Numbered from the stretch's first letter, positions 14,403-52,571 are shown. The stretch is DNA of 64,000 nucleotides from Candidatus Nomurabacteria bacterium (GCA_026396015.1 JAPLXP010000003.1:26626-90625), one strand, 5' to 3'. A program made the numbers and translations. Notes: a model not told the origin generated them from the sequence alone.

Positions 14403-14551
14403 TAAATTATTTAAATAGCTTCTCTCAAAAAGCATGAATATTTTTTTGGTAAAAAATTTCTCTGCTCGTCGATCAAGAAAATAATATTCGTAAACTCATT
14501 TATTTTCTAATCTCCTGTGCAAGACTTTTTTCAAGAACTATTTAAATAATT
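14403..14551. ncRNA. Copy A of a three-copy structured-RNA-like element (novel; strand unresolved)
   Basis: Terminal helix aaattatttaaatag / ctatttaaataattt (perfect 15 bp). Internal hairpin atttttttGGTaaaaaat. Conserved core ...ctctgctcgtcgatcaagaaaataatattcgtaaactcatttattttctaatctcctgtgcaagactttt. Lies 23 nt 5' of the comM start. Confidence 0.45.
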
Positions 14552-14552
14552 T

Positions 14553-14581
14553 TTACCAATAAAAAAATCCGCAATTGCGGA
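14553..14581 (-). terminator. Rho-independent terminator of dksA-like gene
   Basis: aaaaaaatccgcaattgcggattttttt palindrome with flanking A/T runs. Confidence 0.5.
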
Positions 14582-15869: not shown

Positions 15870-16022
15870 AATCTTACATAAAATAGCTTCTCTTGAAAAG
15901 CACACATAATTCTCTGGTGAGAATTTGCTCTGCTCGTCGATCAAGAAAATAATATTCGTAAACTCATTTATTTTCTAATCTCCTGCGCAAGACTTTTCTC
16001 GAGAACTATTTTATTACAGATT
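15870..16022. ncRNA. Copy B of the three-copy structured-RNA-like element
   Basis: Terminal helix aatcttacataaaatag / ctattttattacagatt (covaries relative to copy A). Hairpin aattctcTGGTgagaatt. Core nearly identical to copy A. Lies 18 nt 5' of the start of membrane-protein gene 14968..15852. Confidence 0.45.
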
Positions 16023-19300: not shown

Positions 19301-19411
19301 AATGCATATAGTATCACATATTGTTTGAAAACGCAAGCTACTTTTGAATAAGCAAAAAGTTATCCCCATACTTTACTTGACTAAAGTACTTTACTCTGAT
19401 AAAGTAGGTAT

Positions 19412-19810
19412 ATGGGCAAGGGAATGAATAAAAATACAAAAGTTGGAGATGTTGAAGAGATTTACGTCCTCTCAAAAGATTTCAATTGGAATACTAAAGA
19501 AAATCGTCAGCTTGTCGATGCGTTTATTTCTATTGATGACAAATCCAAGATGGAAGCATTCCTCCGCGATCTGATGACGGAGAGTGAAATCATCGAATTC
19601 TCAAAACGCCTAGAAGCCGCTCGCCTACTCTCCCGAGATACACAGTATCTCTCTATCACAGAGCGTACTGGCCTCTCCTCTGCTACCGTGGCACGTATTG
19701 CAAAATGGCTAAGGGGTCCACTTGGTGGATACCGTTTCGCGCTATCAAATATTGCAAATCTTTCACAGCATCATCATCCTCTCTCAAAACTTGAGAAAGG
19801 ATTGTCTTGA
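19412..19810 (+). CDS. TrpR/YerC-YecD-like DNA-binding protein
   Basis: LSITERTGLSSATVARI helix-turn-helix typical of the Trp-repressor-like YerC family. Confidence 0.5.
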   Translation: MGKGMNKNTKVGDVEEIYVLSKDFNWNTKENRQLVDAFISIDDKSKMEAFLRDLMTESEIIEFSKRLEAARLLSRDTQYLSITERTGLSSATVARIAKWLRGPLGGYRFALSNIANLSQHHHPLSKLEKGLS

Positions 19811-33177: not shown

Positions 33178-33292
33178 GCGAATCTTAAAATTAGCTCTTC
33201 TCTAAATGCACGCATGATTTTCTGGTGAAAATCTGCTCTGCTCGGCTACCCGCCTGCGCAAGGCATTTCTCAAAGACTAGTTTTAAGATTCG
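33178..33292. ncRNA. Copy C of the three-copy structured-RNA-like element (shorter variant)
   Basis: Terminal helix gcgaatcttaaaattag / ctagttttaagattcgc (16/17, with one U-G if on + strand). Hairpin gattttcTGGTgaaaatc. Core ctgctctgctcg...cctgcgcaagg conserved, but the ~45-nt variable hairpin of A/B is replaced by a short segment. Lies 27 nt 5' of the clpP start. Confidence 0.45.
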
Positions 33293-33399
33293 CAAATTAC
33301 CTATATATCTTAACAAAATAAGGGGAATTTACCCCATTGACAAAAGGGGTATAAATATGATATAATATACACAAGAAAACAAATTAACTAAATACGGAT

Positions 33400-34011: not shown

Positions 34012-34029
34012 AAGTAATAGGTAATCAAA

Positions 34030-34060
34030 AGGCCAAAACATTTATGTTTTGGCCTTTTTT
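34030..34060 (+). terminator. Terminator hairpin
   Basis: aaaaggccaaaacatttatgttttggcctttttt. Confidence 0.5.
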
Positions 34061-34102
34061 ATTTTTGCTAATCACTAGAAACTAGCTACTAATCACTAAC
34101 CC

Positions 34103-35164
34103 TTATAGACTCTCTAGGAAATTGAAAACTTTTTCATTGCCCATCATCTGCTCTACGTATGCACGAGCTCGGATTGGATCCGCATCTTTGTACATATTTA
34201 GTAGTGCATCTACTTCTTTTTGAATTTCTTCATCACTTGGCTTTAGGTTTTCCTTTTCCATTAGGCGGTGGATGATCATCGCTAGCTTTGCACGCTTTTC
34301 TGCTTCTGGTCTCCACTCTGTACGGAGGTCAGCCTCAGTCTTTCCTACTTGCTTTAGATATTCATCAAATTTGAATCCCATTTGAGTCACATCTGCTTCG
34401 AGTCTATATAGGAGCTTGTCTTCCTCACTCACTGTCAGGATCTCTGGGATCTCTGCTTCTGTTTTCTCTAGGAGCTTTTCTATGATAGCTAGGCGACATT
34501 TGTCTTTATTTTCTGTTTCCTTTTCAGTCTTTAGATTTTCTGCAACTTTTGCCTTCAATTCAGCTACATTTTCAAATTTACCGATTGATTTTGCAAATTC
34601 ATCATCTACAGCTGGTAAATCTTTCTCTTCTGGTTCTGGGTGTTCTGCATGTGGTGCGCCTGGGGCATCATCCTTGTGTAGATCCTGGTGTGCACGCATC
34701 TTGCGTAGATCTAGTAATACTTTTTCGATATCTGCCTCTTCTATTACTACTTCTTTCTTGTATTCTTCCTTTGCATTTTCCTCTTTTGCGATCTGTGTAT
34801 AGTCTGGGAGGTTTATCTCTGGTAGGACTGCAGTCTTGATTGTGAATTCAAGGTCATTGCCTCGTGCGATCTTTGTAATACTGATCTCTGGGCGTCCGAT
34901 AGCATCAATCTTCTCCTGTTCTAGCATCTCTGCATATGCAGATGTGATAGCACGCTCTGCCATCTCTTCTAATAGCATCATATCGTTGATATTTTGCTTT
35001 ACCATCTCAGCTGGGACTTTACCTGGGCGAAAACCTGGCAATTCCATGCGAGTTCCAATATGTGCGAGGGCTTTGTCTTCATAAGACATAAAAACAGAGG
35101 CTTCTATTACGCCTTCTATTGCTACTTCACTTTTTTCTAATTTTTTAACTGTTGTTTTAATCAT
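34103..35164 (-). CDS. tig: Trigger factor
   Basis: MIKTTVKKLEKSEVAIEGVIEA...ELPGFRPGKVP. Start at the internal Met. Close to clpP, as in many bacteria. Confidence 0.85.
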   Translation of the reverse strand: MIKTTVKKLEKSEVAIEGVIEASVFMSYEDKALAHIGTRMELPGFRPGKVPAEMVKQNINDMMLLEEMAERAITSAYAEMLEQEKIDAIGRPEISITKIARGNDLEFTIKTAVLPEINLPDYTQIAKEENAKEEYKKEVVIEEADIEKVLLDLRKMRAHQDLHKDDAPGAPHAEHPEPEEKDLPAVDDEFAKSIGKFENVAELKAKVAENLKTEKETENKDKCRLAIIEKLLEKTEAEIPEILTVSEEDKLLYRLEADVTQMGFKFDEYLKQVGKTEADLRTEWRPEAEKRAKLAMIIHRLMEKENLKPSDEEIQKEVDALLNMYKDADPIRARAYVEQMMGNEKVFNFLESL

Positions 35165-35831: not shown

Positions 35832-35922
35832 AGAATTAGTTTCTAGTAACTAGGGGCTAGTTGCTAGTGTAATTTATTTATAATTTTTTCTAGTCACTAG
35901 AACCTAGTTACTAGCTTGCTAA
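35832..35922. repeat. CTAG-built palindromic intergenic repeat (family member 1)
   Basis: tagtttctagtaactaggggctagttgctagt ... ctagtcactagaacctagttactagc. Between ppa and nusA. Confidence 0.6.
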
Positions 35923-37107: not shown

Positions 37108-37160
37108 ATTAGTTTCTAGGTTTTAGTTTCTAGTTGCTAGCTAAAACTAAAACTCTTTTT
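37108..37160. repeat. CTAG-built palindromic repeat (family member 2) in nusA upstream region
   Basis: ttagtttctaggttttagtttctagttgctagctaaaactaaaac. Confidence 0.55.
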
Positions 37161-37318
37161 ATTAAATTATAATTTTTTTATTTTAAACCAAGCCTGGTTT
37201 AAAATAAATAAAGTCCGGTTCGAGACGGACATTAATAACATCATAATACCAGTTTTTTCACATAAAAGCAATATTTTATTTTGCTCAATGTTTCTATTGA
37301 TGATATAATATTTTTATA

Positions 37319-44798: not shown

Positions 44799-45050
44799 GA
44801 TAAATATATTTTAAATCTTCGTATATATTTTGTCAATATTTTGTACTTCTTATTACACAAAACCTATCAATTTGACTTTTTGCTGAAATTTGCTAATATA
44901 GGCTAATCGCATTTTCTGCGTGCCCTCCTAAAAAAGGGACCCGAACCTTAGCTAGGTAAGGGAGAAAAAATAATTATTAATAATTTATGTTTGTATATTA
45001 TAATAGAACCTTTTAAGGCTCCGTTATTTTTATAAACCAATAAAACATAT

Positions 45051-46250
45051 ATGGCAGAAGAATTTAATCGTTCAAAGCCGCACGTAAACGTTGGTACTAT
45101 TGGCCACGTTGACCACGGCAAGACGACTTTAACAGCAGCAATCCTTAACACATTGGCTCGCCAAGGTGGTGGATATAGTGCAAAACTAAAGGGGGTAGGG
45201 GATATTGACTCAGCTCCTGAAGAAAAAGCTCGTGGAATCACTATCGCGCTTTCTCATAACGAGTATGAAACTCCAGCTCGTCACTACGCTCACATTGATG
45301 CTCCAGGTCACGCTGACTACATCAAAAACATGATTACTGGTGCCGCTCAAATGGATGGTGCTATCCTCGTAGTTGCTGCAACTGACGGTGCGATGCCTCA
45401 AACAAAAGAGCACGTGCTTCTAGCAAAACAGGTTGGTGTGCCACAATTCGTTGTGTTTCTAAACAAATGCGACATGGTGGAGGACCAAGACATGTTGGAA
45501 CTAGTTGAAGAAGAAATCCGTGATTTGCTTACAAAAAATGGATATGATGGTAAAAATACTCCAGTTATCCGTGGTTCAGCTCTAAAGGCTCTAGAATCAG
45601 CAGATAACAATGACGAATGGGCAAAGAAGATCCTAGATCTTACTAACGCTCTAGATACATACATTCCACAACCAGAACGCGATATTACAAAGCCATTCCT
45701 TATGCCAATCGAAGATATCTTTTCTATCGAAGGCCGTGGAACAGTGGTTACAGGTAAGATCGAGCGCGGTATCGTGAAAGTAGGACAAGACGTAGAAATC
45801 GTTGGTATCAAGGATACAGTGAAGACTACAGTTACTGGTATTGAAATGTTCAACAAATCTTTGAAAGAAGGTATGGCTGGAGACAATGCTGGAATCCTAA
45901 TCCGTGGTATCAAAAAAGAAGATATTACTCGTGGACAAGTTCTTGCAATCCCAGGTTCAGTTACTCCACACTCAGAATTCGAATGTGAAGTTTACGTTCT
46001 AAAGAAGGAAGAAGGTGGTCGCCACACTCCATTCTTTACTGGATACAAGCCACAATTTTACATCCGTACAACAGACGTTACAGGTGAATCAACTCTTCCA
46101 GAAGGTGTAGAGATGGTTATGCCAGGAGACACTGTTAAACTAAAGGTAAAACTAGTTACTCCAGTAGCTCTCGAAGATCAAACACACTTTGCTATCCGTG
46201 AAGGAGGTAAGACAGTCGGTGCTGGTGTCGTAACAAAGGTTATCGCTTAA
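45051..46250 (+). CDS. tuf: Elongation factor Tu
   Basis: [18 protein letters not shown] and NKCD G-motifs. Full-length EF-Tu. Confidence 0.95.
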
Positions 46251-46345
46251 GTTAGGTGCTAGTAACTAGGGACTAGGTTCTAGTTTGAATTTAATTCAAC
46301 TAGAAACTAGAAACTAGAAACTAGAAACTAGAAACTAAAAATATT
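46251..46345. repeat. CTAG-built palindromic repeat (member 3) with a (CTAGAAA)x5 heptamer tandem array
   Basis: gctagtaactagggactaggttctagtttgaatttaattcaactagaaactagaaactagaaactagaaactaaaaa. Confidence 0.6.
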
Positions 46346-46699: not shown

Positions 46700-46781
46700 T
46701 TAAAATTAGGTTTCAGTAGCTAGTGATTAGTTTTTAGTATTTATATACTAGACCCTAGAAACTAGAACCTAACCCCAATAT
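46700..46781. repeat. CTAG-built palindromic repeat (member 4)
   Basis: tagctagtgattagtttttagt...actagaccctagaaactagaacctaacc. Confidence 0.55.
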
Positions 46782-49245: not shown

Positions 49246-49349
49246 AAAAAACAAAAATAGTCTATCCTATTTTAAAAAAGTTCTATCACAAAAAGCACCC
49301 GAAAGGGTGCTTTTTGATTGCTTGACAAAATTATACCAGAATATATACT

Positions 49350-49631
49350 TTGGTATATATGACTACAACAACAATGCTTATAAAAACAAATAAAGAATTA
49401 AAAACCAAGGCTCAAATTCTCGCAAAAGAGATGGGCCTACCTTTGGGTACTCTTATAAACAATTATTTAAAGACTTTTGTGATTGAAAGACAGGCTGTCT
49501 TTACTGCCCCAATGCCCAATAAAAAGACTATAAAGGCTATTGAACAGGCAAGACGTGATATAAAGGCAGGAAAGAATTTAGTTGGACCATTTGATAATGT
49601 AAAAGATATGATGAAAAGCCTCAATTCATAA
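49350..49631 (+). CDS. dinJ: RelB/DinJ-family antitoxin
   Basis: LINNYLKTFVIERQAVFTAPMPNKKTIKAIEQARRDIKAGK parallels E. coli DinJ (LVRITLTKVAREKALPFDLREPNQLTIQSIKNSEAG). Confidence 0.6.
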   Translation: MVYMTTTTMLIKTNKELKTKAQILAKEMGLPLGTLINNYLKTFVIERQAVFTAPMPNKKTIKAIEQARRDIKAGKNLVGPFDNVKDMMKSLNS

Positions 49632-49645
49632 TCTTTAAAAATAAT

Positions 49646-49903
49646 ATGATATTTGGTTATTCTCATTCATTTAAAAAAGATTATAAAAAACTTCCTCCTA
49701 AAATCAAGAAGCAACTTGGTATTAGGATTGAAATTTTTAAATTAAATCAATTTGATCGAATCCTGAATAATCATGCCGTACATCATCCATATACAGGATG
49801 TAGAAGTATAAATATTACAGGAGATTTACGAGCTTTGTATGAGGTAGATGGTGATAAACTCATATTTATCCGAATTGGTACGCATAGTGAATTATATGAA
49901 TAG
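49646..49903 (+). CDS. yafQ: YafQ/RelE-family mRNA interferase toxin
   Basis: Size and C-terminus ALYEVDGDKLIFIRIGTHSELYE parallel YafQ (ILIYKLTDKLLRFERTGTHAALFG). Immediately follows the DinJ-like gene. Confidence 0.6.
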   Translation: MIFGYSHSFKKDYKKLPPKIKKQLGIRIEIFKLNQFDRILNNHAVHHPYTGCRSINITGDLRALYEVDGDKLIFIRIGTHSELYE

Positions 49904-50343
49904 TTAAATAAAGAAGCATCCGAAAGGGTACTTTTTGTTTATTTATTCTATATATTATGGAAAATATAAAGCCTGAGGATTATGAAAATTCAAAATATAT
50001 AATTCAAAACAAAATAGATATTAATTTTAATAATTTATTAAAATCTCAAAAAGTCTTTTTAAAAGTATCTAAAATTTCTTTAGTAATCGCAATTCTTGGA
50101 TTTTTTTTGGAGTAATAGGTATATTGGTGATGGTGGCAGAAATGGAAACATTTTTATGTTTTCTGGCCCAGTTTCGTTTATTTCATTTTTGGGTTTTAAG
50201 TCTGATTCAGTAAGATTATCTAAAATAGAAAAATAGCAAAAAGCACCCACATGGGTGATTTTGATTGGGGGTAGGGGAAAAATTTGACAATTATTTTAAA
50301 TTTGCTAGTATAACCCTACGAGCTCAGTTAGAGCTTCTTTATA

Positions 50344-52247: not shown

Positions 52248-52490
52248 ATGAACACAACAAAGATAAATAAGAATAAAGTACTCAAAGGAGTTGTAACAAG
52301 TGATAAGATGGATAAGACAATCGTAGTATCTGTAACTCGCTTCGTAGAACACGCAAAGTACGGAAAGCGAATCAAGAAGAGCAAGAAATACAAGGCTCAT
52401 GATGAAAACAACACAAAGAAAATTGGCGATGTAGTCGAAATCGAAGAGACAAAACCAATGTCAAAAGACAAGCATTTTAAGGTAATATAG
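52248..52490 (+). CDS. rpsQ: 30S ribosomal protein S17
   Basis: [22 protein letters not shown]...[31 protein letters not shown] matches S17. No L29 gene lies between rplP and this gene. Confidence 0.85.
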
Positions 52491-52571
52491 AATTAGTTTA
52501 TAGTAGCTAGGGGCTAGGTTCTAGGGATTGAATTCACTAGAAACTAGAAACTAGAACCTAATCAAAAATTT
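52491..52571. repeat. CTAG-built palindromic repeat (member 5)
   Basis: tagtagctaggggctaggttctagggattgaattcactagaaactagaaactagaacctaatc. Confidence 0.6.

Follow-up and report, generated by a model that had tools for sequence, protein, structure and literature searches.

CTAG heptanucleotide dyads between genes of a Candidatus Nomurabacteria contig: a proposed dispersed family of palindromic repeats

Six intergenic sites in a 64,000-nucleotide stretch of a Candidatus Nomurabacteria bacterium contig (GCA_026396015.1, JAPLXP010000003.1:26626-90625; hereafter the window, with positions counted from its first letter) are assembled from 7-bp units with a CTAG core, among them a 95-nt element between tuf and rpsJ. 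That these sites form a family of palindromic intergenic repeats resembling repetitive extragenic palindromic (REP) sequences, as a preliminary description of this DNA had proposed, was borne out by our analysis. We see about an even chance that all six belong to a dispersed intergenic repeat family, similar to REP sequences and to miniature inverted-repeat transposable elements (MITEs) and built from heptanucleotide arrays. In the best-supported reading, even strains differ in which members of this family they have gained, lost, resized, or replaced. If this reading is true, the elements represent an undescribed and abundant palindromic repeat family in Patescibacteria and Chloroflexota.

Periodic CTAG arrays in six intergenic spacers

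The motif CTAG-N3-CTAG (CTAGNNNCTAG) occurred 21 times in the window, whereas 100 dinucleotide shuffles gave an expectation of 0.59 +/- 0.78 and a largest count of 3. A scan of the whole 64 kb placed all 21 matches within six spacers, and the described CTAG content was present at every one of the six sites. In the spacing histogram of neighboring CTAG sites, a distance of 7 nt was represented by 21 pairs, 14 nt by 13, and 21 nt by 9, the period being strictly 7. The six spacers together span 441 bases and hold 32 of the 225 CTAG tetranucleotides of the window, and the density in coding sequence was 3.25 per kb. The concentration had been considered more telling on the grounds that many bacterial genomes avoid CTAG; such avoidance does not apply to this genome, in which the observed/expected ratio is approximately 1.0 (1.02 from composition and 1.16 from a Markov model, at 37.7% G+C). 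No CTAG arrays were found in the 3.4 kb past one window edge. The flanking genes tuf, rpsJ, rplC, rpsQ, rplN, nusA, and tig scored above NCBIfam cut-offs, and ppa fell under its cut-off yet was unambiguous, in agreement with the gene names given previously.

Four of the sites, at the tuf–rpsJ, rpsJ–rplC, rpsQ–rplN, and nusA–ppa junctions, are full elements with a shared plan (Table 1). A 5' arm of three to five units, each consisting of XTAG and a mostly G/T triplet, is followed by a short A/T-rich center and by a 3' arm of three to six units, each consisting of XTAG and a mostly A/C triplet, with the two arms standing head to head. At the flanks, the last core is often TTAG (left) or CTAA (right), two mutually complementary sequences, and the outer ends AATTAG...CTAATT constitute terminal inverted repeats, the element as a whole being dyad-symmetric. 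Full elements begin 0–10 nt past the upstream stop codon and end 2–14 nt ahead of the next ATG. Stop codons (TAG/TAA) are present in all three frames of both strands of every element. Both strings quoted in the preliminary description were found, namely ctaggttctagtTTGAATTTAATTCAActagaaactag at 46273–46310 and the CTAGAAA array at 46300–46334, followed by CTAA. Its statement that each element is a long imperfect palindrome holds for five dyad-symmetric sites, but the site at 34062–34100 consists of one arm only. This single arm, which lies between a T-tailed terminator (34027–34058) and the tig stop codon (34103–34105, minus strand), forms no palindrome (fold z-scores of -0.9 and +0.55).

The cores in the 5' arm of the tuf–rpsJ element start at 46252, 46259, 46266, 46273, and 46280, and the attca ahead of its 3' arm recurs in copies from other genomes. 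Orthologues of this element in nine other species retain the heptad register. The cores of the rpsJ–rplC element are partly decayed (TTAG, TCAG, CTAG, TTAG, and TTAG in the 5' arm; CTAG, CTAG, CTAG, and CTAA in the 3' arm), and the nusA–ppa element has 4 + 4 CTAG cores in addition to the outer AATTAG/CTAATT. The coding strand of the short element upstream of nusA reads ...GCTAGCAACTAGAAACTAAAACCTAGAAACTAATATG.

Table 1. CTAG heptad elements of the window and their parts (MFE, minimum free energy of the predicted RNA fold in kcal/mol; z, z-score of the fold)
Feature	Position	Strand	Description
tuf–rpsJ full element	46251..46345	+	tuf stop 46248-46250, rpsJ ATG 46346; MFE -27.5, z -5.4
5' arm of tuf–rpsJ element	46252..46283	+	TTAG GTG CTAG TAA CTAG GGA CTAG GTT CTAG
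A/T-rich center (loop) of tuf–rpsJ element	46284..46299	+	tttgaatttaattcaa
3' arm of tuf–rpsJ element	46300..46338	+	(CTAGAAA)x5 then CTAA; ends 7 nt ahead of rpsJ ATG
rpsJ–rplC full element	46700..46781	+	MFE -18.8, z -3.4
rpsQ–rplN full element	52491..52571	+	MFE -18.9, z -2.3; abutted by rpsQ stop TAG (52488-52490); rplN ATG 52572
nusA–ppa full element	35832..35922	-	MFE -30.7, z -6.4; ends 2 nt ahead of ppa ATG
Short element directly upstream of nusA ATG (37107)	37108..37160	-	weak hairpin, z -2.5; 5' arm degenerate
Single-arm array near tig	34062..34102		five in-phase 7-bp units, CTAATCA CTAGAAA CTAGCTA CTAATCA CTAACCC

Copies at unrelated loci in Patescibacteria and Chloroflexota

A metagenome scan with the pattern CTAGGTTCTAG-N4-34-CTAGAAMCTAG yielded at least 120 loci, with 112 distinct elements among the matches listed, to which the descriptions in this paragraph and the next refer. 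More in-phase units than the pattern required were present in 80 of the 112 elements, and the G+C content of the locus was below 45% in 63 cases and at or above 55% in 42. The low-GC copies conformed to an asymmetric consensus, TAA-ATTAGGTT-NTAGCTT-CTAGGTT-CTAG-(aaaAttca)-CTAGAAA-CTAGTCA-CTAGCAA-CTAGCAA-CTAATTC-ATG, and in many Patescibacteria contigs this module stands ahead of genes with no relation to one another, such as rplT, map, and a gene for an ABC ATPase. The window copies fit the low-GC consensus, including the attca end of the loop. Non-repetitive features are therefore common to different loci and genomes, which indicates that the elements are homologous copies and not independent microsatellites.

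The high-GC version has arms of CTAGGTG/GTT/GGG and the center GGAAGAGCGCTCTTCC. We assigned high-GC loci to Chloroflexota because a neighboring acyl-CoA dehydrogenase is 99% identical to a Ca. Promineifilum breve protein; one Chloroflexota copy lies between livH and livM. A 57%-GC contig has elements at both rpsQ–rplN and rplN–rplX, and its phylum is uncertain because its L14 has a single named near match, at 92%, in a metagenome-assembled genome (MAG) of Pseudomonadota. The listed elements mostly lie 0–20 nt from both neighbors, and most are between co-directional genes, with some between convergent ones. In Chloroflexota, the upstream open reading frame (ORF) often ends in the first TAG of the element.

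Several elements are located at contig ends. The specific hairpin pattern was absent from 2.9 million viral contigs, and the elements are therefore not phage-borne; the degenerate pattern (CTAGN3)3CTAG gave generic tandem repeats among the listed matches in viral contigs and was uninformative. Three loci (L313, L255, and L260; L-numbers are labels of related loci) share the upstream gene end and 5' arm with L320 and continue into different downstream genes (an unknown ORF vs. map). The 3' arm is chimeric, which points to rearrangement by recombination within elements. At three further contig ends (L232, L305, and L321), a repeat with a 12-bp period, (CTAG-c-CTAG-gtt)n with at least eight units, adjoins a conserved ggcgacgcctatataagcacac; it is probably unrelated to the CTAG dyads.

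Turnover at the same junctions among close relatives

We compared the window with contigs encoding identical S10, L14, or Ppa, the DNA of which is 83–100% identical to it. The related loci belong to Patescibacteria and are annotated as Nomurabacteria or Paceibacteria MAGs. The rpsJ–rplC junction, which is filled in the window strain and holds a variant filling in L007, measures 15–20 nt and is unstructured in seven relatives (L001, L002, L003, L005, L008, L009, and L010), one of them at 98% identity. The rpsQ–rplN junction measures 9 nt in seven relatives at 87–94% identity (L331 and L333–L338), and in L332 (97.6% identity) it holds a hairpin of the GTAG/CTAC type instead of the CTAG type. At tuf–rpsJ, the five CTAGAAA units of the window correspond to four in L005 (triplets AAC, AAA, AAC, and AAA; 98% identity), so that unit number varies between close relatives, as in heptanucleotide repeats; L002, L003, L008, and L010 have short versions, L001 and L007 have heptad hairpins of the AAGT/ACTT type, and L009 has another palindrome. 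The nusA–ppa junction of L001 (83–91% identity) is occupied by an AAGT/ACTT-type element. Between filled and empty alleles, the entire stop-to-start spacer differs. Relatives lack the elements at the same junctions, and the elements therefore appear to be dispensable. Taken with the homologous copies at unrelated loci, the presence/absence polymorphism is of the kind displayed by MITEs.

Sister ladder palindromes with the heptad cores AAAGT/ACTTT, GTAG/CTAC, and AATTTTT were observed at junctions that hold CTAG elements in the window (L001 upstream of 10354 and at 784–863, L007, L183, L191, L208, L332 at 1424–1501, and L335 at 1872–2002). The rplN–rplX junction of L335 carries a 129-nt dyad of the AATTTTT type.

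Placement relative to host signals

No Shine-Dalgarno sequence was found at any gene in the window, and many genes have TATAAT 5–8 nt ahead of the ATG, a leaderless-type arrangement. Operon-internal junctions typically consist of TAA, three to five A/T, and ATG. The other 33 spacers of at least 40 nt are mostly filled by T-tailed terminators (a GC stem with A and T runs on either side) plus TATAAT promoters. The CTAG sites share co-directional gene junctions without a terminator or promoter, and the elements lack the T tail on the coding strand that characterizes an intrinsic terminator. A promoter role was rejected, as sigma-70-like sites were not enriched in the elements (61 vs. 54 expected). 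An integron attC site was also rejected: GTTAGGT at 46251 fits GTTRRRY, but its position and order are wrong. A three-frame-stop insulator fails as a general explanation, as other heptads such as AATTACG contain no stops. Searches of the window with Rfam covariance models returned only four tRNAs at gathering score and nothing on the elements even at E<=1. The proposed association with highly expressed junctions stands in part: the sites lie inside or beside translation and transcription clusters, but elsewhere the same module precedes genes for an ABC ATPase, map, livM, and unknown genes.

Comparison with known repeat systems

The elements resemble REP sequences and bacterial interspersed mosaic elements (BIMEs) of Enterobacteria and Pseudomonas, which are associated with REP-associated tyrosine transposases (RAYTs), in being short, imperfect, multi-copy, extragenic palindromes that often separate cistrons or follow a gene, as well as in their strain variability and in the formation of mRNA hairpins that are not classical terminators. 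The 64 kb of the window contain six copies, none of them within a gene. They differ from REP sequences in structure, since a REP is a single GC-rich imperfect palindrome of 20–40 nt with a 5' GTAG, whereas the elements described here are 53–95 nt long and have A/T-rich arms made of 7-bp CTAG+3 arrays. They also differ in that no RAYT was seen in the window, in their stop-to-start span, and in their hosts, Patescibacteria and Chloroflexota.

Similarly, MITEs such as Correia/NEMIS of Neisseria are approximately 50–150 bp long, have terminal inverted repeats, lie beside genes, and are polymorphic among strains, and Correia/NEMIS transcripts form hairpins that RNase III can cleave. In contrast, no related insertion sequence or internal unique sequence was found here, and the inverted repeats are themselves tandem arrays.

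Heptanucleotide repeats are also comparable. Two reports cite the intergenic heptanucleotide arrays (STRR) of Calothrix (PMC4692102, PMC4679880). Some inverted pairs are known among the GGGAATC arrays of Xanthomonas and Nostoc (PMC4692102), and the TAACTGA arrays of Beggiatoaceae, Cyanobacteria, and Bacteroidetes lie directly upstream, by a few nt, of starts without Shine-Dalgarno sequences, also within ribosomal protein operons, including those of L3, S4, S1, and fusA (PMC4679880). According to these reports, no function has been demonstrated for STRR, GGGAATC, or TAACTGA arrays (PMC4692102, PMC4679880). Common to those repeats and the present elements are tandem 7-nt units (two to six or more copies; here three to five in phase per arm, including (CTAGAAA)5), intergenic location, length variation between relatives, and some inverted pairs. 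The present elements differ in their CTAG+3 unit, their regular dyad of two opposed arrays and a loop, their longer consensus with defined ends, and the phyla concerned; TAACTGA repeats, for instance, are direct only. In the open-access literature, we found no description of CTAG-heptad dyads or of any such element in Patescibacteria or Chloroflexota. A string search with the element sequences matched only primers, and the literature on repeats in the candidate phyla radiation and on leaderless translation contained nothing specific.

Symmetry at the DNA level and pairing in mRNA

The elements were previously suggested to form long stem-loops as RNA and to act as RNase III processing or attenuation sites. 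The first part of this suggestion agrees with the predicted folds of the four full elements, which are stable (MFE of -18.8 to -30.7 kcal/mol, z of -2.3 to -6.4). The predicted stems are ladders with rungs of 4–5 bp separated by internal loops of 2–3 nt, and the pairing resides in the self-complementary cores. Mirrored triplets between paired cores were complementary at 54.5%, compared with 54.1% after shuffling and 53.9% one unit out of register. In the alignment of tuf–rpsJ orthologues, ladder pairs occupied 70.7% of cells vs. 69.4% in shuffled alignments (68 of 500 shuffles reached 70.7%), nine pairs showed double changes vs. 5.6 expected (19 of 500 shuffles), outer triplets were almost never paired, and RNAalifold retained only the inner 11-bp stem. 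Compensatory changes in the triplets did not exceed what composition gives. A sense-only count of G-U vs. A-C mismatches by RNAfold (45 vs. 22), which would have indicated RNA-specific selection, was a method artefact; the strand-symmetric repeat of the test gave 47 G-U pairs for the sense strand and 66 for its antisense counterpart. In MFE, the sense strand was the lower of the two in 16 elements and the higher in 28. Given the short rungs, the non-complementary outer triplets, and the lack of a sense bias, we see no evident sign that a particular hairpin has been selected as an RNase III site or attenuator, and that part of the suggestion was not sustained.

Several observations weigh against the interpretation of the elements as mobile or copied DNA repeats. 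No target-site duplication was detected, and no clean empty site could be reconstructed at three junctions; the AATT at both element ends is itself palindromic and is therefore uninformative on target-site duplication. No transposase or RAYT (Y1/HUH) domain was found by Pfam among 30 non-ribosomal proteins of the window, which include one XerC/D-type integrase. The tuf–rpsJ CTAG copy is old, as ten species keep its register and most of its cores in flanks down to approximately 70% identity. At nusA–ppa of L342 (95.9% identity), 8 of 8 cores are kept and 7 of 22 loop bases are changed, the arms being better conserved than the loop. Additionally, a few double changes preserve the inner stem, for example CTAGCTTCTAA/TTAGAAGCTAG in L138. 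A functional element would likewise show the persistence of an old copy, the better conserved arms, and the double changes. Of 28 informative cases, 21 have the longer arm on the side of the start codon; the asymmetric consensus is oriented toward the ATG in approximately 15 independent loci and reversed in approximately 5, and mismatches are A-rich on the sense strand (53 GA+AA vs. 19 TC+TT). These modest gene-relative asymmetries imply some selection on the transcribed strand. Taken together, the dyad appears to be a property of the DNA, to which constraint on the mRNA near the start codon adds lightly.

The stable folds, the conserved arms of L342, and the retained inner stem with its double changes are also what would be expected of a selected cis-acting RNA hairpin, acting as a site of processing by RNase III or another nuclease, as a barrier to 3'-exonucleases, or as an attenuator that sets the product levels of tuf, the S10/spc cluster, nusA, and ppa. 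Hairpins of unrelated sequence moreover recur at tuf–rpsJ in approximately 30 of the 33 species with a long spacer there, and the window contains genes for RNase Y, PNPase, and a NYN nuclease. However, close relatives lack the element at the corresponding junction, no hairpin is present at tuf–rpsJ in 44 of 77 species, and the module also precedes unrelated genes that are not obviously highly expressed. The lack of sense-strand preference in G-U pairs or MFE, the essentially unpaired outer triplets, mirrored triplets that pair no better than shuffled ones, and the absence of a U tail and of any Rfam family speak against this explanation as well, and we regard it as unlikely.

A TrpR-related protein as candidate reader

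The conserved cores, separated by variable and non-complementary triplets, and the directional units that flip at the dyad form a strand-symmetric structure, which is compatible with operator-like arrays for a multimerizing DNA-binding protein. One dimer would occupy each 7-bp unit, a CTAG box with a 3-bp spacer, in direct and inverted orientation. Such arrays resemble the operators of the ribbon-helix-helix proteins omega (pSM19035) and ParG and of tandem TrpR on CTAG, in which 7–8 bp units with a short core occur directly or inverted with variable spacers. E. coli TrpR recognizes CTAG, and the arrays resemble the E. coli trp operator with its AACTAG repeats. A YerC/YecD protein of the TrpR family is encoded in the window at 19412–19810 (Pfam E-value, 1.6e-12; TIGR02531 above cut-off); its homologues include the structural-genomics entries 3FRW, 3G1C, and 3KOR.

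This candidate gained no support as the reader of the CTAG arrays. Upstream of its gene, two tandem ACTTTA-N6-TAAAGT palindromes without CTAG overlap a TTGACT/TAAAGT leaderless-type promoter. The pair is kept almost base for base in five other Paceibacteria (L346–L350; proteins 58–84% identical), and the helix-turn-helix is nearly invariant across species; the family thus has its own conserved site in six species. We found no other exact match to ACTTTA-N6-TAAAGT in the window. The pair is likely to be an autoregulatory operator of the YerC/YecD-type protein family. Operator arrays are further disfavored by the replacement of CTAG by AAGT, GTAG, or other heptads, or its loss, in relatives at 87–98% identity, by the location of the sites inside operons and not at promoters, and by their presence in two distant phyla. 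The previous proposal of binding sites for a nucleoid or regulatory protein gained no support, the one TrpR-family candidate of the window having a different conserved site, and we consider operator arrays distinctly unlikely.

The yerC-like gene is divergent from rpsO (19370–19810). In L346, a second TrpR-family paralogue adjoins a class-Ib tRNA synthetase gene. The AAGT-type ladders of L001, L007, L183, and L191 have as their core TAAAGT/ACTTTA, the hexamer of the YerC-like operator.

Heptad arrays in the wider clade

A scan for 7-nt periodicity in the loci of 80 related species detected approximately 45 arrays, nearly all of them just upstream of start codons of ribosomal protein genes. The units are genome-specific (AACCTAT, AACCTAA, CTAATNT, AATTACG, ACTTTAT, CTACTTA, and GCCTAAG), and some arrays are dyads whereas others are direct only. 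The tuf–rpsJ spacer was bimodal in 77 species, with 44 at <=39 nt and without structure and 33 at >=43 nt. The strongly folding long spacers (z <= -2.6) comprise heptad ladders as well as ordinary GC-rich stems, and their palindromes are mutually unrelated.

In L146, L159, L182, and L188, direct-only arrays fill stop-to-start gaps at several genes, rpsG and rplV among them; they read (CTAATNT)4 and AATTACGAATTATCAATTACGAATTACGAATT, and three different species share an almost unchanged AATTACG block. A further palindrome family, GTCCG...CGGAC or GTCGGAC, occurs at tuf–rpsJ of L150, L154, and L194, upstream of nusA in the window (37213–37230), and in L143 at approximately 1480–1500.

The CTAG elements could be start-codon-proximal heptamer leaders of the TAACTGA type, in which the A/C-rich direct array beside the ATG would serve as a landing pad or binding site for S1, Csp, or another post-transcriptional factor and the 5' arm would be secondary. 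The absence of Shine-Dalgarno sequences from the window, the end of the arrays 2–14 nt ahead of the ATG at junctions including those of rpsJ, rplC, and rplN, and the start-proximal arm, which is A-rich and longer in 21 vs. 7 cases, accord with this explanation, as do the direct-only stop-to-start arrays of related genomes (L146, CTAATNT; L159, L182, and L188, AATTACG) and the published parallel at L3, S4, S1, and fusA (PMC4679880). In larger spacers, however, an element is about as likely to adjoin a stop codon as a start codon; copies exist between convergent genes, and the tig copy lies 3' of its gene. In view also of the dispensability of the elements in relatives and of heptad sequences that are wholly different between genomes, we find a leader function improbable.

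The diversity of heptad flavors in related genomes and the polymorphic unit number would further fit pure simple-sequence repeats, in which case replication slippage and template switching at hairpins would have produced each array independently at its own site and no locus would have been copied to another. A period of 7 is the commonest class of long simple-sequence repeats in bacteria, as two reports state (Mrazek 2007, cited in PMC4679880 and PMC4692102). Against such an origin stand the asymmetric, non-repetitive features common to different loci and genomes, namely the AATTAGGTT and CTAATTC ends, the TCA of the second unit, and the attca loop end, as well as the flanks that rpsJ–rplC and rpsQ–rplN share beyond the arrays, and it appears very unlikely to us.

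A bolder proposal is that the CTAG dyads and their sister heptads (AAGT/ACTT, GTAG/CTAC, AACCTAT, and others) constitute a purpose-built intercistronic module of Patescibacteria that do not use Shine-Dalgarno sequences, shared with Chloroflexota. The ladder hairpin would set the stop codon of a gene beside the start codon of its downstream neighbor, a dedicated heptad-binding factor, either a protein or ribosome-associated, would set the coupling of termination to reinitiation, and the switching of heptad families would reflect co-evolution with that factor. If so, these modules would make up a class of translational coupling elements of their own, a new one; we give this proposal only a slight chance.

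Possible mechanism and significance

Under the dispersed-repeat interpretation, the elements would be DNA-level repeats that are copied between junctions by some route and resized by slipped-strand or hairpin mispairing, which is easy because the CTAG core is self-complementary. They would survive at the junctions of coupled genes because they are translationally inert. In the mRNA, the ladder hairpin would set stop and start codons side by side at its foot, and the element would supply stops in every frame and present an A-rich start-proximal arm without start codons. Self-folding in mRNA would explain why palindromes occupy almost every long operon-internal spacer of the clade, as well as the tight stop-to-start fit and the dispensability of the elements. 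Any effect on expression would probably be modulatory at most, through segmental mRNA stability or processing or the degree of translational coupling, with no essential or dedicated control.

If this interpretation is right, repeats of this kind would break metagenome assemblies, mark strain-level variation within otherwise invariant ribosomal operons, and perhaps mediate rearrangements. They would also provide a concrete case for why organisms without Shine-Dalgarno sites accumulate heptamer repeats at the starts of genes. Such repeats have reportedly been noted since 1990 in cyanobacteria and in 2015 in Beggiatoaceae, and to our knowledge their accumulation at gene starts has never been explained. 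One idea is that, where two genes are translationally coupled, an insert between them is tolerated only if it folds on itself.

Other features of the window

Between rplB and rpsS, non-ribosomal genes break up the S10 cluster, and these genes vary between close relatives (window 49246–50343; L001 12835–14604; L002 3489–5377; L004 2938–4043). In the relatives, the inserts encode YafQ/ParE-toxin or diacylglycerol-kinase domains or unknown ORFs.

Strains also share a conserved block ahead of tuf (window 44860–44990; L001 8532–8660; L003 4815–4945). It contains a TTGACT promoter-like site followed by ggctaatcgcattttctgcgtgccctcctaaaaaagggacccga.ccttagctaggt.agggag and has no Rfam match.

A strongly folding sequence of 115–150 nt, reading TAGTTCTTGAGAAAAGTCTTGCGCAGG ... 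CGAGCAGAGCAAATTTTCACCAGAAAAT...GAGAGAAGCTA, is present in three copies with a mean column identity of 77% (14410–14560, 15870–16020, and 33185–33300, minus strand). Their downstream neighbors are a ComM-like gene, a 294-aa ORF, and clpP, and the copies have no Rfam match; they may represent a shared leader or a small RNA.

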